Source: Chthoniobacteraceae bacterium (GTDB lineage: Bacteria; Verrucomicrobiota; Verrucomicrobiia; Chthoniobacterales; Chthoniobacteraceae). From it: a DNA stretch of 64,000 nt. The position numbers and the translations under genes were made by a program. The DNA is taken from NCBI GenBank assembly GCA_947479475.1, contig CANJZW010000001.1, positions 15,313 to 79,312 on the forward strand, read 5' to 3'. The notes beneath the pieces are model-generated. The model had not been told where the DNA came from. It saw nothing but the letters and a program-made list of their open reading frames with translations, and ran no database searches. Positions 14,643-55,339 of the stretch are shown one piece after another (position 1 is the stretch's first letter; the number at the start of each line of letters is the position of its first letter).

Positions 14643-17600
14643 ATGATTTTGCCAGCATATCGGCTTCTCAGGGCGACAATCATTGTTTGTCTATTGGTTT
14701 GTTCGTCTGCATTTGGCGCCCAGACACCAGCGCTGACGCCGTCGGAGAAAGAGTTTTTTGAAAACAAAATTCGCCCTCTTCTGACAAATAGTTGCCTAGA
14801 ATGTCACTCGGCTGAAAAGGGAAAAGTCAAAGGGGGCTTAAATATGGATTCACGGGATTCCTTGCTTAAGGGAGGGGAATCTGGGGCCGCCTTTAAGAAG
14901 GGGAATGCGGGAGGAAGTTTAATCATCAAGGCAGTCACGTGGGCTGACGATTTGCAGATGCCTCCCAAAAAAAAGCTTGGGCTGAATCAAATCGAAGATT
15001 TAAAAAAATGGATTGCGATGGGGGCGCCCGATCCCCGGGAAGCGGGAAAGATGATCGGCAAAGACAAAAAATCTCACTGGGCTTTCCAGCCGGTGGGGCG
15101 GCCGGCTGTGCCTGCCGTAAAGAATGCAGCCTGGTGCAATAATGCTGTGGACAAGTTTGTGTTAGCTAAACTTGAAGCCAAGGGAATGCTGCCTGCCGGG
15201 CCCGCGGAAAAGGAGGCGCTCTTGCGGCGCGCCTATTTTGATTTGATCGGTCTGCCGCCCACGCCCACCCAGATCGAAGATTTCGTGCGAGACCCAAATC
15301 CTGGGCAGGCTTATGAACGTGTGATTGACCAGTTGTTAGCAGATCCCGCATACGGTGAACGTTGGGCGAGACATTGGTTGGACACGGCGCGTTACTCCGA
15401 CACGACGGGTTTGGTTGGGGCGGAGCGGTTCCAGGATTTCAGATACGCTTATGCATATTCTTATAGAGACTGGGTCATTCGTTCCCTCAACACAGACATG
15501 CCCTACGACCAATTCATCATCAATCAGTTGGCGGCGGATAAAGTTTCTCAATCAAATAAGAAAAACCTCGCAGCTTTGGGTTTCTTGACCGTCGGTCAGC
15601 GCTTCACGCAGAACGACGACGTGCTCAACGACCGCATCGATGCTGTCGGTCGTGGTTTTCTCGGGCTTACCATTGCGTGCGCTCGCTGCCACGACCACAA
15701 GTTTGATCCCATTACGGCCGCCGACTATTACGCACTGCGGGGAGTGTTTGATTCCATCAGCGAGCCCAAGGAGGGGCCGATTGTGGGGGGCGACCCAAAT
15801 TCAAAGAGCTACCAAGAATTCAATCTGAAACTCGCAGACCTAGAAAACAAGGCGGTGGAGGCATTCTATCATATGGAGCGCGAAGTCTCCGACAAGCTGC
15901 GGAAGAACGCTGCCGCAGCTTTTGAAGCGGCCTATCTTTCCCGCCGGGATGCCAGCGCGGAAGAAAAGCAGAGAGGAACCGCTATTTTACAAAAGCAAAA
16001 GCTTCCACCACGCTTCGCCACAGACACCATAAAACTGAACCCTAATCATCCTGTCACTGGCCTCTATGTGAAAATGATTACCATGGGAGGGGATCGCGAC
16101 AAGGGACTTAAGGAATTACTGGAGGGGAGAGCGAAGGGACCGGTCTACAATTCAGCCGTGACAGAGTTTCTCAAAAAACAGCCCAGGCTGCCCTCCGATG
16201 TGCATGAAGTCTCTGTTCTCTTTGGAGCAATGATGGCTCAAATTGAACCACGAGTTGCGGGCTTATACGCGGAGATGAGAAATAAATCCAAGGACCCCAC
16301 CAATTCACCGCAAGCCGCCTCCATGGAGCTTGTGACCTATCCCTTCGGAATGATCCCGGAAGCTGCGATGACGATGGACAAGCTCCGGGAAGAGGGACGC
16401 AGATGGGGGATAGTTTTTGGTCCACAACTCGAGGCACGTGCTGGGTTGGGCAAAATCAACGAGCTCAAACTCACTTCCCGGGGAGGCCCCGTGCGGGCGA
16501 TGGTTGTAGAAGATCTGCCCAAACCCAGAGACTCGCCCCTTTTTGTGAGGGGTAATCCACCTAAACCGGGAGATGCGCCGCGCATCATTCCGCGCCGTTT
16601 TTTGGAGGTCTTAAGCGCGAACGGTACACCGTCTCCTTTTACACAGGGAAGCGGGCGGATGGAATTGGCGCAAGCCATTGCAAGCAAATCGAATCCGCTA
16701 ACGGCTCGGGTGCTTGTTAACCGTGTTTGGATGCATCATTTCGGAGAGGGTTTGGTGCGCACGCCAGATGATTTAGGGAACCAGTCCGGAAAGCCGAGTC
16801 ACCCTGAACTTTTGGATTTTTTAGCCAACTGGTTTACGGAAGATCTTGGGCCCTCCAAACCGGCGTGGTCTTTGAAGGCGCTCCATAAGGCAATCATGTT
16901 GTCCAACACCTACCAGCAGTCCAGCAACACCTCCTTTCGCAGCCGCTCGGTGAACTACGAAACCCTTGACCCTGCAAACAATCTGCTGTGGCACGCCAAT
17001 GTCCGCAGACTCGACTTTGAGAGTCTTCGCGATTCTTTGCTTTCGATGGCAGGAACCCTTGATCGGTCGTCTATCGGTGGTCCTTCTGTCAACCTCACAG
17101 AAGAGCCGTATTCATTCAGACGCGCCGTGTACGGCTACATCGATCGCAGTAAGGTTCCGGACCTGCTGATGCAGTTCGACATGGCAAACCCAGAGCAGCC
17201 CAACACGAAGCGCACAAGTACGATTGTTCCCCAACAGGCGCTTTTTCTGATGAACAGCCCTTTTGTCGCAGCCATCGTTCAGAAAATTGTTTCGCGAAAA
17301 GAAGTCGTGAAAGCGGTGAAGGTGGAGCAGAACACCGAGGCTGGGATTGCCGCGATTTTCAAAATTGTCCTGCAGCGCAATCCGTCCCCCTCAGAAAAGA
17401 AAATGGCTCTCGATTTCCTTTTAAAAGAAAACAAATTACAGGCGGGTGTCAAAAATGCCACGGCCCAGATCAACAAACAGGGCACCAAGCGCGCCGAGGG
17501 GAAATTGAAAGCTGAAGTGAATAGCAACAACAAGAAGCAGGCGATTGTAAATGAGGGAAAGCTGGTGAAACGCGTCACCTTTTCACCGTGGGAAACCCTC

Positions 17601-17645
17601 GTTCAGGCTCTCCTGTTTTCGAACGAGGCTGCATACGTCAATTAG
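14643..17645 (+). CDS. PSCyt1 / DUF1549 (PSCyt2) / DUF1553 (PSD1) family protein, putative c-type heme protein
   Basis: Signal peptide. CLECH at 14793..14807 followed by ...LQMPPKKKL. DUF1549-type block FDLIGLPPTP...GERWARHWLDTARYSDT. CARCHDHKFDP (15678..15692). DUF1553-type block NPLTARVLVNRVWMHHFGEGLVRTPDDLG ... RRLDFESLRDSLL ... TIVPQQALFLMNSPF. Confidence 0.9.
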   Translation: MILPAYRLLRATIIVCLLVCSSAFGAQTPALTPSEKEFFENKIRPLLTNSCLECHSAEKGKVKGGLNMDSRDSLLKGGESGAAFKKGNAGGSLIIKAVTWADDLQMPPKKKLGLNQIEDLKKWIAMGAPDPREAGKMIGKDKKSHWAFQPVGRPAVPAVKNAAWCNNAVDKFVLAKLEAKGMLPAGPAEKEALLRRAYFDLIGLPPTPTQIEDFVRDPNPGQAYERVIDQLLADPAYGERWARHWLDTARYSDTTGLVGAERFQDFRYAYAYSYRDWVIRSLNTDMPYDQFIINQLAADKVSQSNKKNLAALGFLTVGQRFTQNDDVLNDRIDAVGRGFLGLTIACARCHDHKFDPITAADYYALRGVFDSISEPKEGPIVGGDPNSKSYQEFNLKLADLENKAVEAFYHMEREVSDKLRKNAAAAFEAAYLSRRDASAEEKQRGTAILQKQKLPPRFATDTIKLNPNHPVTGLYVKMITMGGDRDKGLKELLEGRAKGPVYNSAVTEFLKKQPRLPSDVHEVSVLFGAMMAQIEPRVAGLYAEMRNKSKDPTNSPQAASMELVTYPFGMIPEAAMTMDKLREEGRRWGIVFGPQLEARAGLGKINELKLTSRGGPVRAMVVEDLPKPRDSPLFVRGNPPKPGDAPRIIPRRFLEVLSANGTPSPFTQGSGRMELAQAIASKSNPLTARVLVNRVWMHHFGEGLVRTPDDLGNQSGKPSHPELLDFLANWFTEDLGPSKPAWSLKALHKAIMLSNTYQQSSNTSFRSRSVNYETLDPANNLLWHANVRRLDFESLRDSLLSMAGTLDRSSIGGPSVNLTEEPYSFRRAVYGYIDRSKVPDLLMQFDMANPEQPNTKRTSTIVPQQALFLMNSPFVAAIVQKIVSRKEVVKAVKVEQNTEAGIAAIFKIVLQRNPSPSEKKMALDFLLKENKLQAGVKNATAQINKQGTKRAEGKLKAEVNSNNKKQAIVNEGKLVKRVTFSPWETLVQALLFSNEAAYVN

Positions 17646-17661
17646 AGGAAACGCCGTTCTT

Positions 17662-17700
17662 CCTCTTGAAACAAGAGGCGCTCTGGCTGCGCTGTTTTTT
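17662..17700. terminator. hairpin plus T-run between convergent genes
   Basis: cctcttg(aaa)caagagg at 17662..17678, then gcgc(tctggct)gcgc and tgtttttt ending at 17700. It lies in the 58-nt gap between the stops at 17645 (+) and 17704 (-). Confidence 0.5.
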
Positions 17701-17703
17701 CTT

Positions 17704-18285
17704 CTAACGCAGGCTTTCTCCGGCGGGGTCCGCGATGAGGTCGTCGGGTGTAAACATCTTCCTGTCGGGGCCGGCGGAGCGGATTTCAAAGTCGGCTTCC
17801 GCCACGGGGTGAACAAAATAAGGCGTACCCCAGCGGTCGAGAAGACGGCCGTTGGAACCGAAGACGGGATGATTTTTGGGCAGGGCGGCGTATTTCATTG
17901 GGTTTTGCCCCTTGAGCACGGCGGCAAGGTCGCTGTCATTTCCAATCGGCAGGCCTTCCCTGCGCCCAAGCCTGCGCAAGTGTTGGCGCAGGAGTGCATG
18001 CAGGGTGTCCACGTCGTGCTGAGGTGGAAAACGCGACGAGTTAAGCTCTGCGGCAAGAGGCGACACTTCTTCCGCTCCCTCGTCTGAATCAGTGGTGGTG
18101 TTCGACGTGGTGCTCGGATCGGCCAGCGGTGCGAGAGACGCGCTGGTTGCTGGATCTTGCTCCGGAGATTGGGGCGAGAAAAGGGATGAATCCCACGCCC
18201 CGTCCATCGGCTTCATGAGCCACAGAATGGCTCCGAGTGTGAGGATCCCGAGCCCCACCAGAACAAACTTGAGAGACTGTTTCAT
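17704..18285 (-). CDS. membrane-anchored protein with a type II secretion pseudopilin (GspG)-like C-terminal domain and no prepilin leader
   Basis: I prefer the ATG at 18285 (MKQSLKFVLVGLGILTLGAILWLM) because the longer 18360 start would overlap the upstream gene. A low-complexity acidic/Ser-Thr linker follows. The C-terminus LLDRWGTPYFVHPVAEADFEIRSAGPDRKMFTPDDLI resembles the DPWGnPY...S.GpDg..gT.DDI end of GspG-type pseudopilins. Confidence 0.6.
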   Translation of the reverse strand: MKQSLKFVLVGLGILTLGAILWLMKPMDGAWDSSLFSPQSPEQDPATSASLAPLADPSTTSNTTTDSDEGAEEVSPLAAELNSSRFPPQHDVDTLHALLRQHLRRLGRREGLPIGNDSDLAAVLKGQNPMKYAALPKNHPVFGSNGRLLDRWGTPYFVHPVAEADFEIRSAGPDRKMFTPDDLIADPAGESLR

Positions 18286-18304
18286 GCAGGCGGTCGCCAC
18301 CGGC

Positions 18305-19702
18305 TCACATGAGGAATCCAAGCGGAGCGCTAGAGTTGTTTGAGGCGTAGAAGTTTCCAATATTGGGAAGTAACAACTTCAAATCGGAGCGAGAGACTCC
18401 CAGCCACAGAGCCATCTCCGCGAAGTAACTGTCCACGGCGATTTGCGGGATCAGGCGGCCGCGGCCCACATCCAAGGGATTGTCGGGCGCGAGACTGGGA
18501 AAAGAGCCGTATACTTTACGTCCTTTGACGGCACCTCCGACGACCAAATGATTGCCCCCCCACGCGTGATCCGTGCCCTCGGAATCCGTGTTCAAGGTTC
18601 GCGCGAAATCGGACGCCGTAAAGAGGGTCACGTTATTCTGCATTCCCAAGGAGGCGAGGCTGTCGAAGAACGCTTTGATGGCGGCATCAACTTCGGGGAG
18701 CATCCGCGCCTGACTGGAAATGAGTTTGTCATGATGGTCCCAGCCGCCGTATTCGATGAAGAAGGTTTGGCGTTTATGTCCCAGCGAATCACGACCGGCA
18801 ATGGTTTTTGCAACGCGCTTTAATTGGCTGGCAAGGTTTGTGTTTGGGTAGGCCGCCTCGTTGGACAAGGGTTGCGACGTCGCGGAGTTGTACTGGGCGA
18901 AGGCGTTCATGGCGCGTGCCTTTCCCGAATTGAACGATTGGGCGAGCAGATTCTGGTAATTGAGCGCCAATTGAGAATCCACGGCTTTTGTCCGGAGCGC
19001 CAGCGGGTTGGTGCCAGTGCTGGAGTGGTTGTATCCATTGAGAGCAACAGCGCCGCCTGTGTTCACAGAATAGGCAAAAGAACCGGCTCCTGATTGCCAG
19101 ATATTTTGCCCGGACAGAGAGACATTCATCGAGACCGTATGGCTCGAATTCAAACCGGCGAGGAGGTCCGCTGCTTTTCCTGCCCAGCCTTTCGCGGAGC
19201 GCGCGTTGGTGGTGGAAGTCTGCCACTGCTCCTGCTGGTCAGCGTGCGAGTATAAACCCAAGGGTAAGTGTCTCGATACGCTGTTGTATTGTGTCTTTGT
19301 GATGGGTTCTGCAAGGGTGCCGACGTTTGTGAGGAACGCGGCGTTTCCTGCTTCAAAAAGAGACTGCACATTGGGGAGGCCGGGATGGAGTCCGAGCTGG
19401 ATCCCGGAGAGGCCTTGCGGGGTGATTGGCAGCAGGCTTGATTGTGGAAGGGCGACCTTTCCACGCACGGCCGCGTACTGTGCGTATTCCGCGCTACCGC
19501 TGGGAACCAATACGTTAAACGTGTCCATGCCGCCGGCCATAAACAAACACACGAGGGCACGGTAGTCAGAGCCATTGGCGGTGGCAGCCGCGGCGTTTCC
19601 AGCAAGATTGAGGTTAAGAACGGTGCTTAAAATCGGAAGGGAACTGATGGCAGCACAGTTCGCCTGGCCGAGAAATTGACGGCGGGAAATTTCCTGGGGC
19701 AT
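18305..19702 (-). CDS. DUF1501 family protein (Tat-exported, alkaline-phosphatase/sulfatase-fold-like)
   Basis: Twin-arginine leader MPQEISRRQFLGQ. Motifs FMAGGMDTFN, FFIEYGGWDHHDK and GTDHAWGGNHLVVGG. It lies 20 nt downstream of the DUF1800 gene. Confidence 0.85.
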   Translation of the reverse strand: MPQEISRRQFLGQANCAAISSLPILSTVLNLNLAGNAAAATANGSDYRALVCLFMAGGMDTFNVLVPSGSAEYAQYAAVRGKVALPQSSLLPITPQGLSGIQLGLHPGLPNVQSLFEAGNAAFLTNVGTLAEPITKTQYNSVSRHLPLGLYSHADQQEQWQTSTTNARSAKGWAGKAADLLAGLNSSHTVSMNVSLSGQNIWQSGAGSFAYSVNTGGAVALNGYNHSSTGTNPLALRTKAVDSQLALNYQNLLAQSFNSGKARAMNAFAQYNSATSQPLSNEAAYPNTNLASQLKRVAKTIAGRDSLGHKRQTFFIEYGGWDHHDKLISSQARMLPEVDAAIKAFFDSLASLGMQNNVTLFTASDFARTLNTDSEGTDHAWGGNHLVVGGAVKGRKVYGSFPSLAPDNPLDVGRGRLIPQIAVDSYFAEMALWLGVSRSDLKLLLPNIGNFYASNNSSAPLGFLM

Positions 19703-19722
19703 CGTGGGGGGGGAGTAAGGGG

Positions 19723-21762
19723 TTAACGGAGGACGGCAAAATCAGGAGAACTCGCGATTAGATAGATGGCCATGCGGACACGTTCACTCTGCCATTGTGC
19801 CACGGTTGTGGAAATGCCCTCGACAGCCTCGCGAATTAGCTGGTGCTGAATCAGGGGCAGCGATCCTCCCATCAAAAGCAAATCAAGGCGCTGCATGAGG
19901 GCGGGGACGTCGCCTGCCAGAGCGAGTTCGGCATCGAGGTGGGGCAAGACCATTTCATCCGGATTTTTGCTGATGGAACGGTTAAACCCGTTTTGGAGCG
20001 TATTGAGATAATAGTTCGGGATGGAGAGCGCGGTGACGGCATTCAGGATTTGTGCTTCTGGGGCTGCCAGACCGGCGTCGAACAAGGCGCCCGCTGGGGA
20101 GTAGTCGGGTTTGAAAAAGTTAAACACGCTCGGAGCCGACATCGGCTGCTGGAAATGGATTTGACTCAGATTACCAAGCGCATAATTTTGATCTGCGGAA
20201 GTCGCGTTCAAAGCGTGCGCGAGGTTTACAGAACGAAGGTACGGTTCTTTGATCCTCCCAAAACTCGGACTGGCGGTCAGCTTGACATCCCGAGCTTCCG
20301 GGTCCAAAAGCACCGCCTTGATCACGGCCTTGAGATCGCCTCGAGCCCTGCTCCCGTTGTCCGCAAACTTATCCGCCACCCTCTTGATGTACTGCGGTGA
20401 GGGGTTGGACGTGACTAGTTTCTGGATCAGCTGTTTGGAGAAAAACGGGGGCGTGTTCGGGTGTTGGAAGAGCGCGTCTATGGCAGCCTTGTAGTCGGCG
20501 GTTCCAGAGGCGCCTGTATCCGGTTTGCTCGCGGTGCGCGCAGGGAGCTGCGTTCCGAGGCTGCCAGGTCCGGCGATGATCGTTTTCGCAGCTAGATCGT
20601 GATAGGCATCCCACATCCGCATCGGGTCCAGATAATTTTCCGGAGCGTTGTAGAAACTCACGGCCTTTGGGCCAGAGAAACTGAAGCCGGTCATCACCCG
20701 GGCCATGTTGGCGACCGTCTTGTTGTCGTACGTGGGGATTGGTTGCCCTCCGGCGTCCAGCACCTTGGTGCCGTCCTGGTTGAGTTGCCATAGTCCGATC
20801 GAGAAAAGCTGCATGATTTCGCGGGCGAAATTTTCATCCGCAAAAGTTCCTGCCGCCGCGTTTCCCTTAGCGTTCTGAAGATGGCTCAAATAGGTACCCA
20901 TGCAGGGGTGCGTTCCCACCGCATACAACACATCGCGAAAGTTGCCGAAAGTCCCCTTCAGCAGCATGTCGTAGAAGCCGGCCATGGCCACGGGACGGTT
21001 CCCGAGGGTCGCTGCTTGGTCGGAGATGACAAAGATTTCGCTCAGGGCAAAACCCACGCGTTGCCGGAGAGGGTCCGCAGTCCCCGAACGGTTCATTACC
21101 TGATTCCACCAGGCGGTGGCCTTCATCGCGCTTGTGACCGCCGTTCCCTGAGAGAGGAGATAGGGCTGGAGCAATCCTACAGGCTGATTGAACTGCTTCT
21201 CGATCCAACCTTGAAACCCCAAGTCACTCACTTCAGAGACATTTTTAAAGTCACCGTCCGGTCCGAACGCAGCCTGGTTTAAAAAGCGTACCGCCGCCTT
21301 TTTTCCGGGAAGTGCCGATCCTGCCTTCAAATTAAGCGAGACGCTCGGGGCAGCCGACAAACTGCCCCCTGCGACTTTCGCTGTTGATAAGTACCCCGAC
21401 GTCAGAGTGACCGTGATCGTTTTAACTGCAGGCGTGAGAGGCTTATCGGTGGGTGAGAACTCCAGCCACGCTTCGCGTGCGCCATCTGGAATTGTGATCG
21501 TATTCCCCGCGCCCACGCCATATTCGAGGTTGCGGAGAGCCGTACCACCGATTGAGAAACCAACGGTCACGGCTCCCTTTGTGTTTTTACGGCGGAAGGC
21601 TACGACACCGTTGTCCGGCCAGTTTGTGCTCATGTCCCCATCGATTAGGACAAGGGAGACAGGATCTGAAGTCTGAGCCAGTGCGGACGGGCCAGGGCTT
21701 GTTGTGCAGAGAGCCAATAAGGCAAGAGCTGCGACACGGGAGAGCGGGGAATTGCTTCTCAT
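19723..21762 (-). CDS. DUF1800 family protein with an N-terminal beta-rich extension
   Basis: The ORF is open to 21921, but a signal-peptide-like start MRSNSPLSRVAALALLALCTTS sits at the ATG at 21762. DUF1800-type blocks: AWWNQVMNRSGTADPLRQRVGFALSEIFVIS, GNFRDVLYAVGTHPCMGTYLS and ENFAREIMQLFSIGL. Confidence 0.8.
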   Translation of the reverse strand: MRSNSPLSRVAALALLALCTTSPGPSALAQTSDPVSLVLIDGDMSTNWPDNGVVAFRRKNTKGAVTVGFSIGGTALRNLEYGVGAGNTITIPDGAREAWLEFSPTDKPLTPAVKTITVTLTSGYLSTAKVAGGSLSAAPSVSLNLKAGSALPGKKAAVRFLNQAAFGPDGDFKNVSEVSDLGFQGWIEKQFNQPVGLLQPYLLSQGTAVTSAMKATAWWNQVMNRSGTADPLRQRVGFALSEIFVISDQAATLGNRPVAMAGFYDMLLKGTFGNFRDVLYAVGTHPCMGTYLSHLQNAKGNAAAGTFADENFAREIMQLFSIGLWQLNQDGTKVLDAGGQPIPTYDNKTVANMARVMTGFSFSGPKAVSFYNAPENYLDPMRMWDAYHDLAAKTIIAGPGSLGTQLPARTASKPDTGASGTADYKAAIDALFQHPNTPPFFSKQLIQKLVTSNPSPQYIKRVADKFADNGSRARGDLKAVIKAVLLDPEARDVKLTASPSFGRIKEPYLRSVNLAHALNATSADQNYALGNLSQIHFQQPMSAPSVFNFFKPDYSPAGALFDAGLAAPEAQILNAVTALSIPNYYLNTLQNGFNRSISKNPDEMVLPHLDAELALAGDVPALMQRLDLLLMGGSLPLIQHQLIREAVEGISTTVAQWQSERVRMAIYLIASSPDFAVLR

Positions 21763-21871
21763 AAAACCGAAGGGTTGCTGGGGGGTTCGGTCGGTGAACT
21801 CTGTGGGTGACACAGATTCTCGATGCCTCTTTCTTAGGGATTTTTTCAAAAATGCCAGAAAGATCTTTAAA

Positions 21872-21902
21872 GAGCTCTGGCCGTCACCGGCCAAAAGAGC
21901 TC
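21872..21902. terminator. bulged 12-bp hairpin between the HEAT/cytochrome gene and the DUF1800 operon
   Basis: gagctctggccg(tcac)cggcca-aaa-gagctc. It is flanked by short T/A runs on both strands and sits 110 nt upstream of the proposed DUF1800 start. Confidence 0.3.
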
Positions 21903-22163
21903 GTTTTGAATTTGCAACCATCCTTGAGGGAGAGGTTTAAAAGAAAGCAGACGCGCCCGTGTTCCGGGCCCCCCATTGCGTTTTCTGGCTATAAATTTCT
22001 CAGACCGCGCTATCATGCAGCCCGAGGTCGGCAACCCAGTGTATCAAGAAACAATGCTTCGGTCTCTGGCTTTTGGCGTCCTCTGCATCAAGAAAACCAG
22101 ACCTTCCGTCTCTAACAAAAAGTGGCTATCAGGTTGAACACCTGGATTTTGTGGCGAAGAAAC

Positions 22164-41166: not shown

Positions 41167-41190
41167 TCTTATCCTGTTTCTAAAGTCGGG

Positions 41191-41224: not shown

Positions 41225-41255
41225 CCTGTCCCTCTTCCCGCTCAAGACGCTCCCT

Positions 41256-44200
41256 ATGAATCTCAAACGCCTATCTCTTCGCGCAGTCGCAGTCGTTTTT
41301 CTCGCGAATTGCTCGGTGGCTCATGCCGCCGCGACCGCACAGATCGCGCCTGAGCACAGAGAGTTTTTCGAAAACAAAATCCGACCCATTTTGAGCAATT
41401 CCTGTCTGGAGTGTCACTCCGGGGCAAAGGGAAAAATCACAGGGGGGTTGAACCTTGACTCCAGGGAAACCCTTCTCAAGGGGGGGGAAACCGGCGCCGC
41501 ATTTAAGGAGGGTGATATCAAGGGAAGCCTGATTATCAAGGCGATCACTTGGGAGGACGACCTCCAAATGCCACCCAAGAAAAAGTTGACTCCCGAGGAA
41601 ATCGAGGACTTCAAAAGATGGATTGGAATGGGGGCGCCCGATCCCCGCGATGCGTCCAAAATTGTCGTAAAGGACAAAAAAGCCCACTGGGCTTTTCAGC
41701 CCGTAGCACGGCCTGAAAAGCCTGCGGTCAAAAACGCAGCTTGGTGCGTAAACTCGATCGATAACTTTGTCCTCGCCAAGCTTGAGTCCAAGGAAATGCT
41801 CCCAGCGCCCCAGGCAGACAAGGAGGCTTTGCTGCGACGTGTTTATTTTGATTTGATCGGCCTGCCTCCGTCACCCAAGGAAATTGAAGCCTTCGTCCGA
41901 GATCCGGATCCCGACCAGGCTTATGTCCGGGTCATCGACAAACTTCTGGCGGACCCTGCTTATGGCGAACGCTGGGCAAGGCACTGGCTGGATACCGCGC
42001 GGTATTCGGATACCACCGGAGTGGTCGGCAATGCACGGTTCCAGGACTACAGGTACGCCTACGCGTATTCCTTCCGCGACTGGGTGATTAACTCCCTCAA
42101 TTCGGACATGCCGTACGATCAGTTTATCGTTCAGCAATTGGCCGCCGACAAAGTGCCCAACAATCCAAAGGAAAACCTCGCCGCAATGGGTTTGCTCACT
42201 GTGGGGCAGCGCTTCCAACAAAAAGACGACATCATCAACGACCGCATTGATGTCATCACCCGTGGTTTTCTGGGACTAACCGTGGTTTGCGCGCGCTGCC
42301 ATGACCACAAATTTGACCCGGTAACCGCAGCCGATTATTATGGGTTACGCGGCGTTTTCGACTCCATCACAGAACCCAAAGAGGGTCCGGTGATCGGGGG
42401 AAACCAAAACTCCGCAGCTTATCAGGACTTCTCCCGGAAACTCGCCGATCTTGAGAAAAACGCTTACAGTTCATTCTACTCTCTCCAGCGCGAAATTTCA
42501 GACCGGTTCCGCAAAAATGCGGAAGCTATTTTTGAAATTGCCTACCTCTCCCAGCGCGATTCGACGCCAGAGGAGAAGAAGACGGCAAACGCAATTCTGG
42601 AAAAAACCAAACTCCAGGCGCGTTTTGTTGACGACACGGCCAAGCTGAACCCAAACAACCCAATTACCGGTATTTTCTTCAAGATGATTACCTTGAAGGA
42701 CAACCGTGACAAGCAGTTGGCCGATATTTTGCAAGGCAAGGCCAAGGGGCCGAAGTATAACACCGCAGTCATTGATTTCCTGAAAAAGCAACCGAAACTA
42801 CCCTCCCAGGTTCACGAAGTCGCTGTGCTTTTTGGAAAGATGGTCCTCGAATATGAACCGCAAGTCGCGGGGATGTACGCTGAGATGCAGAATGCCTCCA
42901 AAACCGCCGCGGATCCTGCAAAGATCCCGCTCATGGAATTGGCTGCCTACCCGCTGCCGATGGTTCCCGCCGCCGAACTGGATTTGGAAAGGCTCAGGAA
43001 AGAAGGAATACGTTGGGGATTGACCTTCGGCGGACAGTTGGAGAACAAATCAGGCTTGGCGAAGATCAACGAGCTCAAGCTCACCTCCAAAGGTGGTCCC
43101 GTGCGAGCCATGGTGGTCGAAGACTTGCCAAAGCCCAAGGATTCACCACTCTTCATTCGTGGCAATGCGCCGAAGGCGGGCGAAGAGGCCAGAATCATCC
43201 CGCGCCGGTTTATCGAGGTGCTCAGCACCAATGGAGCCACGCCATTCAAGGAAGGCAGTGGCCGCCTTGAACTGGCTCATGCCATCGCAAGTAAGGAAAA
43301 CCCGCTGACTGCACGCGTTCTCGTCAATAGAATGTGGATGTATCATTTCGGAGAAGGCTTGGTGCGCACCCCGGATGATTTGGGTAATCAGGCAGGTATT
43401 CCATCGCATCCGGAGCTGCTCGATTTCCTTTCAACGTGGTTCACCGAGGATTTTGGACCGTCTAAACCAGCCTGGTCCGTGAAGGCCCTCCACAAGGCCA
43501 TCATGATGTCTAGGACCTATCAGCAGTCGAGCAATACGGCCTTCCGAGGCAAATCCATCGATTACGAGAAGACCGATCCAAGCAACAGCATGCTCTGGCA
43601 TGCGAATATCCGCCGGCTCGACTTTGAATCGTTCCGCGACTCACTGCTCTCCATGGCAGGGACGCTCGACCGTTCGTCCGTGGGTGGTCCTTCCGTGAAC
43701 ATCACGGAGGAACCGTATTCCTTCCGTCGCTCCGTCTACGGCTATATTGACAGGGCCAACATCCCGGACCTTTTGATGCAGTTCGACGTAGCCAACCCGG
43801 ACCAACCCAATACAAAGCGCACTTCGACCATCGTGCCCCAACAGGCTTTGTTTTTGATGAACAGTCCGTTCGCGGCGCAGGTTGTCCAGAGGGTGGTCAA
43901 TCGCCCGGAAGTCGTCCAAGCCGTCGCAGTTGAAAAAAACACAAAGGCGGGGATCGTGGCGATTTTCCGTATCCTCCTTCAGCGCACGCCATCGATCAAG
44001 GAGCAGGAGATGGCTCTCGCTTTCTTGGTCAACGAAAACAAGTTCCAGTCTTCGGTAAAAGCCGCAACCGCAGATATCAATAAGGAAGCGGCTAAAATTG
44101 CAGCCACCAAGGTAAAGGCGCAGCAAAACAATAACGGCGGGAAAAAAGCCGTCCTGAATGATGGTGAGTTTGAGGGAGCCAATGTCACACTCACCAAGGG

Positions 44201-44456
44201 GACGAATCTCGTCATGAACGTTCTCAATGTTGCAGATCTTCATGTGGGTGCGGCTGTCAGTGGGCAGGGGGTTCCGCCCGGAACGACGATCGTTTCGGTT
44301 GCCGGGACAACGGTGACCCTGAGCAACAAAGCCACCGCAGGGAGCACGACGGCCTCGTTGCGCGCCGCCGATCTCGTTCAGCGGGTCACGTTTTCACCCT
44401 GGGAAGCCTTGGTGCAGGCGATCATGTTCTCTAACGAAGCCGCGTATGTGAACTAG
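41256..44456 (+). CDS. PSCyt1 / DUF1549 / DUF1553 family protein, paralogue of 14643..17645
   Basis: Signal peptide. CLECH at 41403..41417 and CARCHDHKFDP at 42288..42302. It is collinear with the 14643 protein over its full length, roughly three quarters identical by eye, apart from a 68-codon insertion near the C-terminus. Confidence 0.9.
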   Translation: MNLKRLSLRAVAVVFLANCSVAHAAATAQIAPEHREFFENKIRPILSNSCLECHSGAKGKITGGLNLDSRETLLKGGETGAAFKEGDIKGSLIIKAITWEDDLQMPPKKKLTPEEIEDFKRWIGMGAPDPRDASKIVVKDKKAHWAFQPVARPEKPAVKNAAWCVNSIDNFVLAKLESKEMLPAPQADKEALLRRVYFDLIGLPPSPKEIEAFVRDPDPDQAYVRVIDKLLADPAYGERWARHWLDTARYSDTTGVVGNARFQDYRYAYAYSFRDWVINSLNSDMPYDQFIVQQLAADKVPNNPKENLAAMGLLTVGQRFQQKDDIINDRIDVITRGFLGLTVVCARCHDHKFDPVTAADYYGLRGVFDSITEPKEGPVIGGNQNSAAYQDFSRKLADLEKNAYSSFYSLQREISDRFRKNAEAIFEIAYLSQRDSTPEEKKTANAILEKTKLQARFVDDTAKLNPNNPITGIFFKMITLKDNRDKQLADILQGKAKGPKYNTAVIDFLKKQPKLPSQVHEVAVLFGKMVLEYEPQVAGMYAEMQNASKTAADPAKIPLMELAAYPLPMVPAAELDLERLRKEGIRWGLTFGGQLENKSGLAKINELKLTSKGGPVRAMVVEDLPKPKDSPLFIRGNAPKAGEEARIIPRRFIEVLSTNGATPFKEGSGRLELAHAIASKENPLTARVLVNRMWMYHFGEGLVRTPDDLGNQAGIPSHPELLDFLSTWFTEDFGPSKPAWSVKALHKAIMMSRTYQQSSNTAFRGKSIDYEKTDPSNSMLWHANIRRLDFESFRDSLLSMAGTLDRSSVGGPSVNITEEPYSFRRSVYGYIDRANIPDLLMQFDVANPDQPNTKRTSTIVPQQALFLMNSPFAAQVVQRVVNRPEVVQAVAVEKNTKAGIVAIFRILLQRTPSIKEQEMALAFLVNENKFQSSVKAATADINKEAAKIAATKVKAQQNNNGGKKAVLNDGEFEGANVTLTKGTNLVMNVLNVADLHVGAAVSGQGVPPGTTIVSVAGTTVTLSNKATAGSTTASLRAADLVQRVTFSPWEALVQAIMFSNEAAYVN

Positions 44457-47975: not shown

Positions 47976-48010
47976 CTTTTGCCCTCTAAATTTCTTAGTC
48001 ATCTTTAACA

Positions 48011-49039
48011 ATGAAACGACGCTCTTTCCTGCGCGGCACCGTATCCGCGGCAGCGGCCTCTGTGTGCGGCTTTCCCTTTGTCCGCGCTCAATCGCCGCAG
48101 ATTCTCGGGCAGGGTGATTTCCGGTACAGGGTCGTGCCAGGATGGGGCGTCTTGGATGGTAAGACGCCGGTCAAGAACTGCCACGGAATCGTCCGAAATC
48201 GCGAGGGGCATATCCTCCTCCTCACCGATCACACCAACAACAACGTGATTGTTTACGACAAAGCGGGAAAGCTTGTGCACAAATGGGGCACGGACTTTCC
48301 GGGGGCACACGGTCTTTCGATTGTCAGTGAGGGTAATCGCGAAGTGCTTTTTCTGACTGACCTGCAGAGGCACCGCGTATTCAAGACCAGCCTCGATGGC
48401 GATCTATTGCAGGAATGGAGCTGGCCCGAAGCCTCCGGCAAATATGAAAAAGAGGATCAATACAAACCCTCTTGGACGCTTCATCTGGACGGAGGTGATT
48501 TCCTTGTTCTGGATGGATACGGGCGCGATTTTATCTCCCGCTACAACGGTTCTGGGAAGCTCCTCCACACCTTTGGCGGACAAGAGGGTGGTATTGTGCA
48601 CTGGGGACCGCATGGCGGCATGGCCGACCTTCGTGATCCCAAAAACCCCTCGCTCCTCATTGCGATGAGCGACCAACAGCATCTGCTCCGGCTTTCTTTA
48701 ACAGGCGAAAGGCTTCACGTCATAGAAATGCCGGGAGGCAACCCGCGCCAAATCCGGCATCATCGAAAGCATTTTTTTGTAGCGCACCTGGCCGACAATT
48801 GGCCGGCAGATCGTAATTCCAGAGGCTTTCTTTCAGTGCTCGATGCAGAACTTAAAGTTCTTTCGAATGTCGGGGGAACCGCGCCTTCTTACAGCGCTGA
48901 TGGAAAACTCGAAAGAATGCGGCACCAGGAGGAAATATTTATGCATCCTCACGATCTCGTCGTTGATGCTGAGGATAGTATCTACGTCGCACAATTCGCG
49001 TCTGGAAACAGCTATCCCATCAAACTCGAACGGATCTGA
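48011..49039 (+). CDS. Tat-exported six-bladed beta-propeller (NHL-repeat / peptidyl-hydroxyglycine-lyase-like) protein
   Basis: Twin-arginine leader MKRRSFLRGTVSAAAASVCGFPFVRA. Repeated blade motifs: HGIVRNREGHILLLTD, VIVYDKAGKL and HPHDLVVDAEDSIYVAQF. Confidence 0.7.
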   Translation: MKRRSFLRGTVSAAAASVCGFPFVRAQSPQILGQGDFRYRVVPGWGVLDGKTPVKNCHGIVRNREGHILLLTDHTNNNVIVYDKAGKLVHKWGTDFPGAHGLSIVSEGNREVLFLTDLQRHRVFKTSLDGDLLQEWSWPEASGKYEKEDQYKPSWTLHLDGGDFLVLDGYGRDFISRYNGSGKLLHTFGGQEGGIVHWGPHGGMADLRDPKNPSLLIAMSDQQHLLRLSLTGERLHVIEMPGGNPRQIRHHRKHFFVAHLADNWPADRNSRGFLSVLDAELKVLSNVGGTAPSYSADGKLERMRHQEEIFMHPHDLVVDAEDSIYVAQFASGNSYPIKLERI

Positions 49040-50799: not shown

Positions 50800-50817
50800 A
50801 TGCTAGAATGGAGACAG

Positions 50818-52272
50818 TTAAGCCAGAATATCTTTAACAACGCCGGCCTGCTCCACTCCAGTCAGGCGGAAGTCCAGTCCTTGGAGACGGTACGTGAACC
50901 GCTCGTGATCTACGCCCATCAGGTGCATGATCGTCGCGTGTAAATCGCGGACATGCACCGGGTTTTCTGCCACGTTGTAGCTGAAATCGTCGGTCTTTCC
51001 GTACGAAAACCCTGCTTTTACGCCCCCCCCAGCCATCCACATTGTAAAACACCGTGGATGGTGGTCCCTTCCTGCCTCCGGGCTGTCCCACTGCCCTTGT
51101 CCCGCAACGCCGCGGCCAAACTCTCCACCCCACACCACAAGCGTGTCGTCCAGGAGACCGCGCCGCTTGAGGTCTGTGACCAAAGCGGCGCTGGCTTGAT
51201 CGGTGTCCCGGCACCGAGCCGTGCACCAGGACGTGAGCCTGCTGTGATGGTCCCAGTCTGGATGAAAAAGCTGAACAAACCTTACGCCCCGCTCCACCAA
51301 ACGCCGGGCAAGAATGCAGTTTGCCGCGTAACTTCCAGGGCGTCGTGAATCCGGGCCGTAGAGCTCGAAGATTTCAGCCGGTTCGTCGCTCAGATCCGTC
51401 AGGTCGGGGACGCTGCTTTGCATCCGAAATGCCATCTCGTATTGTTGAATCCGGGTAGCGATCTCTGGATCGCCCGTGTCCTTCAGACGCTGGGCATTAA
51501 TCGATGCTAGGCTGTCGAGCATCTCCCGGCGCAATGCGCGAGGCATGCCGTCAGGGTCTCGAAGGTAAAGCACGGGCTCTCTGGCATTGCGCAGTTTCAC
51601 GCCTTGATAACGCGATGGCAAAAAACCACTTCCCCAGTAATGGTCATAGAGGGGCTGGTCGCTTGGGCGTTGCATTTTTGAGATCAGCACCAGGTAGTCA
51701 GGCAGGTTTTTGTTCGTGCTTCCTAGTCCGTAACTCACCCACGAACCAATGCTTGGCCGGCCGGGAATCTGGTTTCCAGTCAGCATTTTCGTCATTGCCG
51801 GCGCGTGGTTTATCTCGTCCGTGTGCATCGACTTGATGAAACACAATTCATCGGCTACCGCTGCGGTATAGGGAAGCCACTCACCGACCGTGGAGCCACT
51901 CTTGGAGCGGTGAAATTGTGTGGCGGCAGGTTTAATGAGCTGCTTTTGTTTGGCGGTCATCGTCGTTAGCCGCTGCCCCTTTCGAATTGAATCGGGCAAC
52001 TCCGTGCCCGCCCATTTACGTAGATCGGGCTTTTCATCAAACAATTCAATTTGAGATGGTCCACCGGATTGTGTGAGGAAAATCACACTCTTGGCGCGGG
52101 CTGGGAAATGAGGCAGATTCCCGAGCCCTAGCCCCGAGAACCCAAGATTGGGGGACGGTTCATTTCCGAATGCGCCTTCGCGGGCCATCGCCGCCATAGC
52201 GATCGAACCGACCGACACCCCTGTGCACTTTCCAAGAAAATAACGGCGGCTTATTTCTAGGGAATCATTCAT
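50818..52272 (-). CDS. DUF1501 family protein (Tat-exported)
   Basis: Leader MNDSLEISRRYFLGK. Motifs IFLTQSGGPSQIELFDEKP, LFHPDWDHHS, VWGGEFGR, GRDHHPRCF and HVRDLHATIMHLMGVDH. Its start overlaps the stop of the upstream PSCyt gene by 8 nt. Confidence 0.85.
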   Translation of the reverse strand: MNDSLEISRRYFLGKCTGVSVGSIAMAAMAREGAFGNEPSPNLGFSGLGLGNLPHFPARAKSVIFLTQSGGPSQIELFDEKPDLRKWAGTELPDSIRKGQRLTTMTAKQKQLIKPAATQFHRSKSGSTVGEWLPYTAAVADELCFIKSMHTDEINHAPAMTKMLTGNQIPGRPSIGSWVSYGLGSTNKNLPDYLVLISKMQRPSDQPLYDHYWGSGFLPSRYQGVKLRNAREPVLYLRDPDGMPRALRREMLDSLASINAQRLKDTGDPEIATRIQQYEMAFRMQSSVPDLTDLSDEPAEIFELYGPDSRRPGSYAANCILARRLVERGVRFVQLFHPDWDHHSRLTSWCTARCRDTDQASAALVTDLKRRGLLDDTLVVWGGEFGRGVAGQGQWDSPEAGRDHHPRCFTMWMAGGGVKAGFSYGKTDDFSYNVAENPVHVRDLHATIMHLMGVDHERFTYRLQGLDFRLTGVEQAGVVKDILA

Positions 52273-55200
52273 GAGTCATAGCTTCGTCGAGGTTGAATAG
52301 GAGACTTGCCACAAGCGCGTATGCAGCCACTTCGGGTTGTTGCGGCGCATTGGGCAGCACGGATTGGCCAGCTTGCAGGACCTTCAGGGCATCTGCAGGG
52401 TGGTCTTTGTAATGGGCCAGGGCAGATTTCAGCGACCGCTGTAGCAAGGGAGTTTCATCCGATTTAAGGGGCCGCCCAAGGATTGCCTCACTAAGCCAGT
52501 TCAAGCGTAAATCTGCATCTGCGCCAGCCATGACGGCGCGCACGCCGAGCACGCGTGATGCCTCGCGGGAGGTCTCATCGTTGAGGAGCGTTAGTGCTTG
52601 AAGGGGCGTATTGGTGCGGTTGCTACGTACTTCGCAAACGCGGCGTTGTGCCGTATCGAACAAGAAGGTCGGGGCGATGGATCGCCGCCAGAAAGTGTAC
52701 AGCGTTCTACGGTATTGTGCGGATCCGAGGCTTGGCTCGTACTTAAACCGGCCCATAAAAAGTTCCTCCCACACGCCCGCTGGCTGGTATGGCCTTGTGG
52801 GAGGCCCACCGGTCGATGTGTTCAGAAGGCCTGATGCCTGAAGGGCTGCATCGCGCAGCATCCAACTGGGAAGACGAAACCTGGACCCACGCGCCAAAAG
52901 GCGGTTGGTCGGATCCCTGCTTAAAAGCTCGGCGGAGACCGCAGAAGATTGCCGATACGTTTCACTGTTCGCAATGAGGGTGAGGATGTGTTTGGTGTCC
53001 CAGCCGCTTTCCATAAACTCCACGGCTAACCAATCGAGTAGTTCGTGATGGCTTGGACGCTCCCCTTGAAGGCCAAAATCCTCGGGGGTTCGGACAAGGC
53101 CGTTTCCAAACAAGAGCTGCCAAAGTTGATTAACAACGACACGAGCCGTGAGAGGGTTTTTTCTCGAAACGATCCAGTGCGCGAGGCCAAGCCGATTGCG
53201 TGGCTCCTGCTCCGGCCAAGGGGCGATGGAAAGGGGAACGCCGGGTTGTACTTTGTCCCCGTGTTTGTCCCAGACACCGCGTACCAGAACAAAAGTATCC
53301 CGTGGCTCTTTTTGCTCTTCAAGAACCATGACCTTCAATGGGCCGGTTGCCGCCTTAGCCTCCACCGCCTGTTCGTTGGCACGCGCAAGTAATGCCTTCA
53401 CTTTAAGATAGGGTGCGTGATCCTCTAGGTAATGCTCAAAAAGCTGTTTGCGAAGCAGCTCTGGTAGCCCCGATGCCGAGCGTATTCCACTGGCAGCCAG
53501 AGTCTGGAGCGTGCCCGGCTTGAGGCTCCGAATTGTTTCTCCAGCCTGGTCGGTGGCGAACAATCTGAACCTTCCTATGTTTGTGTCCCCCAGTGTCGAA
53601 CGCTGCCGGAGTTCCACAACAATCTCTTCGTCACTTTCGAGCATCAGCGGCTCTGCAAAACTAAAAACCGCGGTGTGTATTACATCCTGCGGCGCGCCTT
53701 TGGTGGTCCATCCATTGCGGGGATCATCGTCGAGCGTATCTTTAATGTCTCCATAACCACCGTTGGCTTTTTTGTCCGCCGAGAAGTCTGCGATTGCCGT
53801 CTTTACTGCGATATCTCGCACCTCCGCTTTCCCGCTTTGACGGACCTGAACTTTCAGATCCGTAAGAATAAATTCTCCTGACGCGCCACGGGACAGTCCT
53901 CCTTTTGTATTGCCGGAGTAGGGAAGCACCTCAAGCTTCAGACCGGTAATCCGCTTCAGCAGGGTGCTGGCAAGGACCTTGTACTCGTCTTGTCTGGGAT
54001 TGGAACCGGTTGCCTGAATGGAATGGTCGGACTTCTGCAAAAGCACGGTGCCCTCAGTACTGGTCAATGCGCTTGCCACAATGGGACGCCATTCTTGAAA
54101 ATGTGAATCCAGCCCTTCCACCAAAGCGGGGAGACCTTCCTCAAACGGCTTCCTCGCCGAGAGCCGAGCCTCGGCTTCAGACTGTTTCCATTCGGAGACC
54201 GTGGCGTTTGCCGAGAGTAGAGCCGCTCCGGCGTGGACAGATCGTATTTCGTAAAAAGGTGCGGCAGCGCTTCCCGCGGCGCCGGTTTCAGCAATGCTAT
54301 TGAAAAAAGCGGTGAGGCTGTAGTACTCGGCCTGGGTGATCGGATCAAACTTGTGATTGTGGCACTGCGTGCATCCGAGAGTAAGTCCTAATAGGGCGGT
54401 GCCAGTCGTATTAACTCGGTCGATTACATAATCCACCCGAGACTCTTCCGGATCGCGTCCCCCCTCTCCATTGGCCATATGATTGCGGTGAAAACAGGTG
54501 GCAATTTTTTGCTCAGGAGTCGGGTTTGGGAGGAGATCTCCCGCAAATTGTTCGATCGTAAACTTGTCGAAAGGCGTGTTCGCATTGAAGGAATCCGTCA
54601 CCCAGTCACGCCACGGCCAGTTGGAACGCGTGCTGTCTGACTGAAAGCCGTCCGTATCCGCATACCGAGCCACATCAAGCCACCAGAACGCCATCCGCTC
54701 GCCGAAATGGGGCGAGGCAAGTAACCTCTGGACGGCTCTCTCCCACGCATTGGGTGCGAAGTCCGAGAGGAAGGCGTTTAATTCCTGGGAAGTCGGAGGA
54801 AGCCCTGTGAGGTCAAAGCTGACCCTTCTCAATAACGTATGCTTCTCGGCTTGGGGGGATGTAGCCAATCCCTCTTTGCTGAGAGCTTCACGCACATAGG
54901 CGTCGATCGGATTTTGACCTTCGAAGGGAAGGGCCGATTTTCTGGGCGGCTCAAATGCCCAGTGGCGCCCCCACGGTGCTCCCTCGGCGATCCAGCGCCT
55001 CAGCAACTCAACCTGATTGGGCTTTAGGGGCGGCTTGTGAGACTTCGGGGTCGGCATGACCTCTTCCGGATCCTTTGAAACAATGCGCCCCAAAAGCTCG
55101 CTGGCCTCGGGGCGATTGGGGACGATGGCGGAAATGCCATCCTTGTTGGGGCGCGTCGCTTCTTCGCGCACATCCAGCCGGAGGCCTGCCTTACGCGTTG

Positions 55201-55339
55201 ATTCGTCTGGGCCATGGCAGCTAAGGCAATTGTCAGAAAGAATGGGAAGGACATCCCGCCCGAATTGCACAGGCTCGGCTGCGCCTGATGGAAGGGCGTT
55301 AGCGAAAAGCAGCGCGATGAAAAAAGCCCACGGTTTCAT
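52265..55339 (-). CDS. PSCyt1 / DUF1549 / DUF1553 family protein (divergent third copy)
   Basis: The ORF is open to 55501, but the ATG at 55339 gives the signal peptide [21 protein letters not shown]. CLSCH at 55214..55228 and [11 protein letters not shown] at 54359..54373. DUF1549 block [12 protein letters not shown]...[20 protein letters not shown]1553 block [29 protein letters not shown]. Confidence 0.85.
   Translation of the reverse strand: [1024 protein letters not shown]

Follow-up and report, generated by a model that had tools for sequence, protein, structure and literature searches.

A recurrent gene pair encoding an exported haem protein and a DUF1501 protein in a Chthoniobacteraceae genome, with a possible role as a cytochrome-c-linked periplasmic metalloenzyme

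A previous survey of the neighbourhoods of all DUF1501 genes found that their strongest associates encode proteins with PSCyt1, PSCyt2, and PSD1 domains; its authors noted twin-arginine translocation (Tat) and general secretion (Sec) signals, spoke of a 'conserved genetic module', and suggested that it serves electron transport, without settling on a function. The same authors reported carbohydrate-binding domains in paralogues and found that one type of four-gene cluster correlates with intracellular membranes at 0.85 (Kamneva et al. 2012, PMC3542564). The adjacency of DUF1501 and PSCyt-domain genes was seen again in freshwater Verrucomicrobia (He et al. 2017, PMC5615132). The domains are credited to Studholme et al. 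2004, to whom the link of PSD1/PSCyt2 genes to extracytoplasmic function (ECF) sigma factors is also attributed (as cited in PMC2754498), and Rhodopirellula baltica carries 41 copies each of the PSCyt2 and PSD1 domains (PMC2754498). A second arrangement, an operon of DUF1800 and DUF1501 genes, has been noted in Proteobacteria, where it adjoins chitin synthase genes (PMC5122149). The present study examines a stretch of 64,000 nt from a Chthoniobacteraceae bacterium (contig CANJZW010000001.1), hereafter the window, which encodes three proteins with the PSCyt1, PSCyt2, and PSD1 domains (PSC_A, PSC_B, and PSC_C) and three DUF1501 proteins (Table 1). Two of these form PSC-DUF1501 pairs, B and C, which are ordinary members of the published module, so that the first-pass annotation of the window, which had proposed a candidate for an uncharacterised periplasmic system, was describing something already in the literature. 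What is new here is an analysis of the DUF1501 active site, of which we found no example in the papers searched, the recognition of two synteny classes, a wider taxonomic range, and an extended module that includes an AraC-family regulator and a propeller protein resembling the lyase PAL. We propose tentatively that the PSC-DUF1501 pair could be a two-subunit periplasmic metalloenzyme linked to cytochrome c, its subunits exchanging electrons via covalent haem c, a reading that we consider quite possible though short of probable.

Families were assigned to the window proteins by Pfam hmmscan, and all matches reported here far exceed the gathering scores. Each of the three PSC proteins contains PSCyt1 (PF07635, E 2e-16 to 4e-13), PSCyt2/DUF1549 (PF07583, E 4e-84 to 9e-74), and PSD1/DUF1553 (PF07587, E 4e-87 to 3e-71), in that order and each above its gathering score, which bears out the single shared architecture that had been read from the sequence. 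One CxxCH motif lies in PSCyt1 and a second, as CxxCH-x-HK-x-DP, in PSCyt2 (nt 14793/15678 in PSC_A, 41403/42288 in PSC_B, and 55228/54373 in PSC_C, the positions 55214 and 54359 annotated earlier marking the motifs of this minus-strand gene at their lower coordinate); the C-x-x-C-H-[DN]-H-K-F-D-P block and the NPLTARV...W...FG.GLVRTP.D[FL]G module are likewise present. DUF1501 (PF07394) scored 129, 432, and 510 bits in DUF1501_A, DUF1501_B, and DUF1501_C against a cut-off of 27, and DUF1800 (PF08811) was found above its gathering score in the gene directly upstream of DUF1501_A. The DUF1501 proteins follow their annotated twin-arginine motifs with GGWDHH, GGWDTH, and PDWDHH and with GRDHH, GRDHN, and GTDHA, and the signals bear out the proposed division of labour in export, Sec for the haem protein and Tat for DUF1501; all of the family assignments were likewise correct. 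An NCBIfam search returned no informative family, and a direct sequence search of PSC_C and DUF1501_C against the PDB gave no matches. As to gene starts, the ATG at 55339 is the right one for PSC_C because it yields a signal peptide and a length that fits its relatives among the matches listed (1001-1117 aa, mostly ~1010-1030). The start of DUF1501_B is uncertain between 39697 and an internal ATG at 39772, since the former leaves 30 residues ahead of the arginine pair and many relatives align from residue 29 onward only, while the latter gives a more usual Tat signal; that of the DUF1800 gene is ambiguous between 21921 and ~21765 and is likely Met53, near nt 21765.

The coupling of the two genes is tight and takes two forms. 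In pair C the PSC gene precedes DUF1501 and the two overlap by 8 nt (ATGAATGA), and in pair B DUF1501 precedes PSC across an 89-nt spacer; the genes of both pairs are adjacent and co-oriented, as in the module of Kamneva et al. PSC_A, 69% identical to PSC_B over 984 aa, is flanked by a divergent sulfatase gene upstream and the convergent DUF1800 operon downstream, and we regard it as an orphan paralogue because no cognate DUF1501 stands in operon position, so that the recurrent pairs of the first-pass annotation are two, B and C. The third DUF1501 gene does follow a DUF1800 gene, as had been described, after a gap of 20 nt. The recurrence within one window is not due to chance, because the PSC family is hugely expanded, as the copy numbers of R. 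baltica illustrate.

To place these arrangements, we kept 80 genome loci from a scan with a DUF1501 profile, one genome per species, and searched their open reading frames (ORFs) with hidden Markov models built from the window proteins and their relatives. A PSC gene lay directly upstream on the same strand in 71 of 90 DUF1501 ORFs and downstream in 2; nine of the remainder had no room for a neighbour, and several of the other eight are artefacts of stop-to-stop ORF calling. The B-type order, DUF1501 followed by PSC, was kept in ~60 of the ~63 loci with downstream room in a further set of 80 metagenome loci. There are thus two synteny classes, each stable, ~130 loci together, and the adjacency of the pair is conserved in related genomes. 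From the PSC stop codon to the arginine pair the median distance is 56 nt, and the distances among PSC proteins correlate with those among their DUF1501 partners (r = 0.77 across 69 pairs, a value reached by 0 of 999 permutations). The pairs duplicate and diverge as units, and shared ancestry contributes to the correlation. Synteny, spacing, and co-divergence speak for the two-component periplasmic enzyme that had been suggested from the window alone, although the idea itself is not new. Beyond the module genes, and sulfatases in 13 of the 80 genome loci, the neighbourhoods vary.

Relatives in the same gene order, at 52-58% identity, occur in the Bacteroidota isolates Pseudarcicella hirudinis and Kriegella aquimaris and also in metagenome-assembled genomes (MAGs) assigned to Acidobacteriota, Rhodothermales, and Acidimicrobiia. 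This takes the module beyond the Planctomycetes-Verrucomicrobia-Chlamydiae (PVC) bacteria, and the annotated expansion of these families in PVC phyla stands, as in R. baltica, without their being confined to those phyla. This distribution tells against the structural or organisational role, tied to the intracellular membranes or cell envelope of PVC bacteria, that Kamneva et al. 2012 first suggested and for which the 0.85 correlation of one four-gene cluster type with intracellular membranes speaks (PMC3542564). The AraC and ECF/FecR regulators described below point instead to substrate-induced expression, and the fold and conserved residues are enzyme-like; we hold a structural role to be very improbable.

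Among full-length PSC ORFs both CxxCH motifs are present in 66 of 66, in keeping with the conservation expected of a haem protein's orthologues, and the second is retained in relatives that lack PSCyt1. The PSCyt1 profile matches the dihaem iron oxidase FoxE (5mab, E 1.8e-9) over both of its haem domains, with the CxxCH and Met-Pro positions aligned, the monohaem cytochrome c 4rlr (E 1e-4), and the haem domain of hydrazine synthase alpha. On the strength of these matches to solved haem proteins and of the invariant residues C38, C41, H42, M95, and P96, PSCyt1 is a credible His/Met cytochrome c domain. A profile of the whole PSC length reaches PDB entries solely via PSCyt1. The AlphaFold model of PSC_C (predicted local distance difference test score, pLDDT, 81; predicted template modelling score 0.76) is mainly helical with a beta-sandwich at approximately residues 415-600, and the sandwich alone was matched in a fold search of the PDB (carbohydrate-binding modules CBM6, CBM11, and CBM27 and ConA-like lectins, probability 0.9-0.99, with weak E-values); BIRC6, which ranked top when the full model was searched, was set aside as noise. 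The helical parts, PSCyt2 and PSD1, gave no PDB fold match and no profile match either.

Around the CxxCH of PSCyt2 stands a set of invariant polar residues (D222, D235, R244, D268, R285, D307, H329, K330, and D332), a pattern that would suit an open, possibly catalytic haem at this putative second site. The PSC protein might then itself be the enzyme, its PSCyt1 haem transferring electrons and its PSCyt2 haem performing catalysis, compare cytochrome c peroxidase and MauG, and the B- and C-type DUF1501 might be accessory or non-catalytic, serving in substrate binding, maturation, or a follow-up step. Besides the polar set and the lack of a distal ligand, as in an open catalytic haem, this explanation draws on the loss of the classical catalytic residues from DUF1501 and on the modularity of PSCyt1, which can occupy a separate protein: beside a C-type pair in locus L085, positions 11475-20263 encode a DUF1501, a PSCyt1 protein with a WD40 propeller, a PPC-domain protein, and a PSCyt2-PSD1 protein, which is the four-gene cluster of Kamneva et al. 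with its two haem domains on separate proteins. Set against it, DUF1501 is the more conserved partner (among the relatives listed, and across phyla, 75-97% identity for DUF1501_C vs 59-92% for PSC_C), its invariant His/Asp/Glu/Arg cluster would be unusual in a pseudoenzyme, its Tat export implies a cofactor or metal, and PSCyt2 has neither fold nor sequence similarity to peroxidases, so that we judge a PSC-based enzyme to be distinctly unlikely.

The window encodes two more giant exported haem proteins, of other PVC-typical families, one with DUF7133, HEAT, and cytochrome c domains (22164-25511, minus strand) and one with DUF6797 and cytochrome c domains (29884-34275, plus strand). Together with the three PSC genes this makes five large c-type cytochrome genes per 64-kb window.

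The model of DUF1501_C resembles LtaS, S1 sulfatases, and phosphonate monoester hydrolase in fold (Foldseek E 5e-7, with template modelling scores of only 0.3-0.4), and DUF1501 aligns with a profile built from the S1 sulfatases in the loci examined (hhalign Prob 94%, E 2e-8). In this alignment the formylglycine motif C-x-P-x-R of the sulfatases falls on H156-A-P-A-M, with the TG ten residues on retained, and the D-H of SDHG falls on E384-F385 (GEFG), a placement with which the PDB profile search agrees. DUF1501_C thus has no C/S-x-P-x-R formylglycine motif and no Asp-His/Asn pair of Ca2+ ligands as in S1 sulfatases, and it probably lacks the other Ca2+ ligands, the beta-1 Asp-Asp, as well, its beta-1 strand ending in S-G-G-P-S where the alignment is weak. 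In a comparison of 231 DUF1501 sequences in three subfamilies, the residues common to all were the arginine pair, G70, G166, W340, D341, H343, [E/D]384, F385, R387, G401, D403, H404, G415, and G425. The arginine motif is present in 79 of the 90 related DUF1501 ORFs, and its conservation reaches at least 95% in each of the three subfamilies. All 170 haem-partnered sequences have H156, which is without counterpart in the DUF1800-partnered subfamily; there, the Asp of GGxD (Ser in the others) and an NVGTL motif are invariant, so that the kind of active site goes with the kind of partner. To judge from these residues, haem-partnered DUF1501 proteins are not canonical sulfatases or phosphatases, and the strong conservation and the His/Asp/Glu/Arg cluster argue for a working metal site. 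The annotated label 'hydrolase-like' consequently fits the fold and does not fit the site of the haem-partnered proteins, in which an invariant His takes the nucleophile position and Glu-Phe that of the metal ligands.

The fold keeps in play a more ordinary role for DUF1501, as a metal-dependent hydrolase or transferase of an anionic ester (phosphate, sulfate, or similar), with PSC or DUF1800 as a non-redox partner that would bind, present, or anchor the substrate and with haems that would be structural, regulatory, or sensory. An invariant R387 and, mostly, K419 would supply cationic side chains suited to an anionic substrate, the CBM-like inserts of PSC and the carbohydrate-binding domains reported in paralogues (PMC3542564) are compatible with such a role, and sulfatases are the commonest neighbours (13 of 80 loci). 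The last point was set aside as a functional clue, as 16% is by our estimate about the background rate in sulfatase-rich genomes. Both the sulfatase and the PhoA-like gene annotated in the window were confirmed. What disfavours an ordinary hydrolase is the replacement of the nucleophile by His, of the beta-1 Asp by Ser/Gly, and of D-H by E-F in the haem-partnered proteins, the cost of two invariant CxxCH motifs and a FoxE-like domain for a non-redox role, and the presence of a membrane cytochrome in the operons of Bacteroidota.

The DUF1800-DUF1501_A operon bears on the same question, as the haem-free DUF1800 protein pairs with DUF1501 alike and the DUF1800-partnered subfamily retains the Asp and Thr, both of which favour hydrolysis; weighing the two sides, we rate the hydrolase explanation as rather unlikely. 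By eye, GGxD and NVGTL may recall the Asp-Thr nucleophile set of NPP, LtaS, and EptA, a likeness that alignment did not confirm: a global hhalign run of the DUF1800-partnered DUF1501 against sulfatases failed, and a local run aligned the C-terminal half only (Prob 49%). DUF1800 has 7695 representative relatives, and in loci L169-L171 it again lies directly upstream of a relative of DUF1501_A, 12 nt apart; ECF and FecR genes stand upstream of the pair in L170, a Kiritimatiellia locus. The third gene of the operon, the small ORF, is 60-63% identical to the genes at the same position in L169 and L171 (E 2e-50 and 3e-49), its conservation being limited to ~115 C-terminal residues (DRWGTPYF..HP....E.RSAGPD..FT.DD), and it has no Pfam match. 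We also considered DUF1800 as a haem-free homologue of PSCyt2/PSD1 and rejected this, as BLASTP gave nothing and four hhalign runs on richer profiles stayed below Prob 1%; two of the four returned the same weak register on PSD1 (P..v..la..F..G...d.K.l...i), which serves as a lead only.

Some further features of these genes were recorded in passing. The motif of the small ORF looks by eye like the C-terminus of type II secretion pseudopilins. Many DUF1800 proteins (P0263, P0282, P0292, P0302, and others) are 1000-2260 aa long, with a C-terminal DUF1800 domain and long N-terminal extensions that parallel the variable inserts of PSC, and the extension in L170 has TSP3 repeats.

Sequence comparison places pair C within a larger conserved module, which also comprises an AraC regulator and a PAL-like propeller with a Tat signal. 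An Opitutaceae locus (L081) has the order AraC (divergent), PSC, NHL propeller, and DUF1501; its AraC gene is 63% identical (E 2e-133) to that of the window at the same position, where L085, L001, and L002 also have an AraC gene, and the gene between its PSC and DUF1501 is 36% identical (E 7e-66) to the window propeller, which is displaced 1.8 kb from pair C and lies on the opposite strand. Of the 80 genome loci, 12 have a propeller homologue next to the pair, as do L081-L084, and of 13 homologues checked 12 carry the twin-arginine motif in its standard form, RR-x-[FW], the exception being L056 with RRDFG. PAL itself is a six-bladed propeller that depends on zinc (PMC6529398), and the propeller profile matches the rat PAL core 3fvz (E 5e-15) over one 164-position stretch, where generic NHL domains outscore it; the conserved residues of the propeller are H100, Y170, H201, R208/R220, and H314-D315. 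The X-Pro dipeptidyl-peptidase/CocE-type (S15) hydrolase at 49144-50799 (plus strand), between the propeller and DUF1501_C, is probably not core to the module, since homologues occur near the pair only in L026 and L020. The pair operon of ten loci (nine of them from Bacteroidota, the tenth from Planctomycetota) includes a membrane protein of ~460 aa with DUF2231, PSCyt1, and leucine-rich-repeat domains (Table 1); DUF2231 is a His-rich transmembrane domain, and the operon is shared with PSC, DUF1501, and the PAL-like propeller. This gene is absent from the window.

Read as a metalloenzyme linked to cytochrome c, the pair would work as follows. PSC would be exported by Sec and have its haems attached in the periplasm; PSCyt1 would act as a small His/Met cytochrome c relaying electrons, PSCyt2 would contribute the second invariant CxxCH-x-HK-x-DP site in a helical domain without a solved relative, and the variable inserts, CBM-like in PSC_C, are probably substrate-binding. 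DUF1501 would be exported folded via Tat, presumably loaded with metal beforehand, and would join PSC in a physical complex, its sulfatase/alkaline-phosphatase scaffold apparently rebuilt to a His/Asp/Glu/Arg site (H156, D341, H343, E384, R387, D403, and H404 in DUF1501_C). The module of pair C would be under AraC control and would be joined by the Tat-exported PAL-like zinc lyase, whose presence suggests oxidation or hydroxylation of the substrate followed by lyase cleavage, as in peptide amidation. Where present, the membrane DUF2231-cytochrome would link the system to the respiratory chain. Pair B would represent the second synteny class, under ECF sigma/FecR control, and the DUF1800-DUF1501_A operon would be the haem-free version, with a DUF1501 whose Asp and Thr look, by eye, like the classical nucleophile set. 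A bolder form of this proposal would make haem-partnered DUF1501 a new enzyme class, which would have traded the nucleophile and the Ca/Zn site for a redox-active, His-rich metal centre, wired via the two PSC haems (in Bacteroidota also via the membrane DUF2231-cytochrome c) to the respiratory chain, with the product of the AraC group cleaved by the PAL-like zinc lyase, and would serve the oxidative, not hydrolytic, breakdown of a class of organic compounds; we regard this full form as unlikely.

Several observations weigh against a redox metalloenzyme. The haem-free DUF1800 pairs with DUF1501 in the same way as PSC does, so that electron transfer is not needed by the whole DUF1501 family. No redox-cofactor motif could be recognised in DUF1501, nor does it have an invariant Cys, and the rebuilt site could still be hydrolytic, or inactive. 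The model of DUF1501_C is of mediocre quality (pLDDT 67), its putative active-site loops being predicted with low confidence, and the loss of the beta-1 Asp pair is only weakly indicated since the N-terminal, beta-1 alignment to sulfatases is not significant. For the PSCyt2 CxxCH there is no invariant distal Met or His beyond the motif-adjacent H329 and K330. The spacing of the propeller residues presumably resembles that of PAL (H585, Y654, H690, R706, and H786-D787). Finally, literature searches found no functional study of DUF1501, DUF1549, DUF1553, or DUF2231, which agrees with the annotation of these families as having no experimentally assigned function.

The genes that follow pair B are likely its regulators, and ECF sigma factors also occur near B-type pairs in L106, L108, L122, L126, and L130. 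The hairpin in the spacer of pair B is GC-rich (GGCCGGAGGCG...CGCCTCCGGCC), with -38.3 kcal/mol and z = -4.3 for nt 41160-41260 (101 nt), and it may set the ratio of the DUF1501_B and PSC_B products.

Table 1. Positions of the genes and elements discussed, in window coordinates except for the last row, which refers to other loci
Feature	Coordinates	Strand	Description
PSC_A	14643..17645	+	Sec signal; PSCyt1 + PSCyt2 + PSD1; 1000 aa; CxxCH at residues 51/346
PSC_B	41256..44456	+	Sec signal; PSCyt1 + PSCyt2 + PSD1; 1066 aa; CxxCH at residues 50/345
PSC_C	52265..55339	-	Sec signal; PSCyt1 + PSCyt2 + CBM-like beta-sandwich + PSD1; 1024 aa; CxxCH at residues 38/323
DUF1501_A	18305..19702	-	Tat signal SRRQFLG; DUF1800-partnered subfamily; Pfam DUF1501 E 3e-37
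DUF1501_B	39697..41166	+	Tat signal SRRDFLV; first gene of pair B; Pfam DUF1501 E 3e-129
DUF1501_C	50818..52272	-	Tat signal SRRYFLG; second gene of pair C; Pfam DUF1501 E 7e-153
DUF1800 protein	19723..21921	-	haem-free large partner of DUF1501_A; Pfam E 4e-72; no CxxCH
Small conserved ORF	17704..18360	-	third gene of the DUF1800-DUF1501 operon; true start probably downstream of the listed TTG
Stem-loop	41185..41228	+	within the 89-nt spacer of pair B; no U-tract following
ECF sigma factor	44576-45139	+	directly after pair B; Pfam; likely regulator
FecR-like anti-sigma factor	45136-46497	+	follows the ECF sigma factor after pair B; Pfam; likely regulator
PAL-related six-bladed NHL propeller	48011..49039	+	Tat signal; assigned by profile and homologue comparison
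AraC-family regulator	55396..56277	+	divergent from PSC_C; Pfam
Sulfatase	12489-14378		divergent, upstream of PSC_A; confirmed
Alkaline phosphatase	37107-38333		confirmed
DUF2231-PSCyt1-LRR protein	L029 6539-7912		also in L016, L022, L036, L037, L043, L050, L055, L069, and L073

Elsewhere in the window, a 2588-aa ORF (1845-9611, plus strand) has at least 10 passenger-associated-transport repeats (PATR), as is usual for giant surface proteins. One operon (57691-63812, minus strand) encodes a MacB-type ABC transporter together with a HlyD-family adaptor and a TolC-like outer membrane protein, a tripartite efflux system unrelated to the PSC-DUF1501 pairs. GC content peaks at 0.63 at 28-36 kb, and GC skew goes from ~+0.07 to slightly negative between 36 and 52 kb and then turns positive again.

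The PSCyt/PSD1, DUF1501, and DUF1800 families are among the most expanded functionally unassigned families of Planctomycetota and Verrucomicrobiota and are frequent, too, in Bacteroidota and Acidobacteriota of soil and water; because major degraders of complex organic matter carry dozens of copies per genome, they mark a true gap in the biochemistry of the carbon cycle. Although no new kind of system comes with the window, the analysis makes an old question easier to test, through one extremely conserved orthologous module (AraC, PSC, DUF1501, and PAL-like lyase), also found in cultured Bacteroidota, a short list of invariant residues, and a clear prediction. Each PSC protein of a redox metalloenzyme should hold two haems, and its DUF1501 should contain a redox-active metal and show no classical esterase activity. 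If the bolder proposal were true, aerobic PVC bacteria, Bacteroidota, and Acidobacteriota would each encode a route catalysed by a new enzyme class, in dozens of copies per genome.

Compared with the published DUF1501/PSCyt module, pairs B and C have the same domains, the same adjacency, and the same Tat and Sec signals, and the link to ECF sigma factors has been published as well. Earlier papers regard the module as confined to PVC bacteria and connect it with compartmentalisation, whereas we found it also in Bacteroidota isolates and in MAGs assigned to Acidobacteriota, in two fixed gene orders, with one orthologous group that carries an AraC regulator and a PAL-like lyase. The DUF1800-DUF1501 operon (PMC5122149) recurs at 18305-21921 in the same order and with a haem-free partner, and differs in the small third gene conserved here.

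DUF1501 shares its core fold with the S1 sulfatases and the alkaline-phosphatase superfamily (LtaS, NPP, and phosphonate monoester hydrolase), and also a helix-strand motif, vD..a.l...L...G....T.v.f..[DE].G, and the TG ten residues past the nucleophile position; unlike S1 sulfatases, haem-partnered DUF1501 has H-A-P-A-M and E-F at the nucleophile and ligand positions and, less securely, would lack the beta-1 Asp pair. In the comparison with FoxE-type and class I c-type cytochromes, PSCyt1 aligns with both haem domains of FoxE, with CxxCH and the Met-Pro region conserved, and unlike in FoxE the cytochrome domain makes up only the N-terminal ~100 of ~1000 PSC residues, the remainder being without a solved relative. 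Peptidylglycine alpha-amidating monooxygenase (PHM + PAL) serves as a working analogy for a PAL-like propeller beside a putative redox enzyme, although here the PHM-like copper domain is missing and the propeller is bacterial and Tat-exported. Periplasmic catalytic subunits work alongside c-type cytochrome subunits in p-cresol methylhydroxylase, a flavocytochrome c, and in the Sox system, where the SoxAX cytochromes work with the Tat-exported hydrolase SoxB; with no relationship in sequence or fold, the likeness of the PSC-DUF1501 pair to both lies in the layout of the subunits and, for Sox, in Tat export as well.

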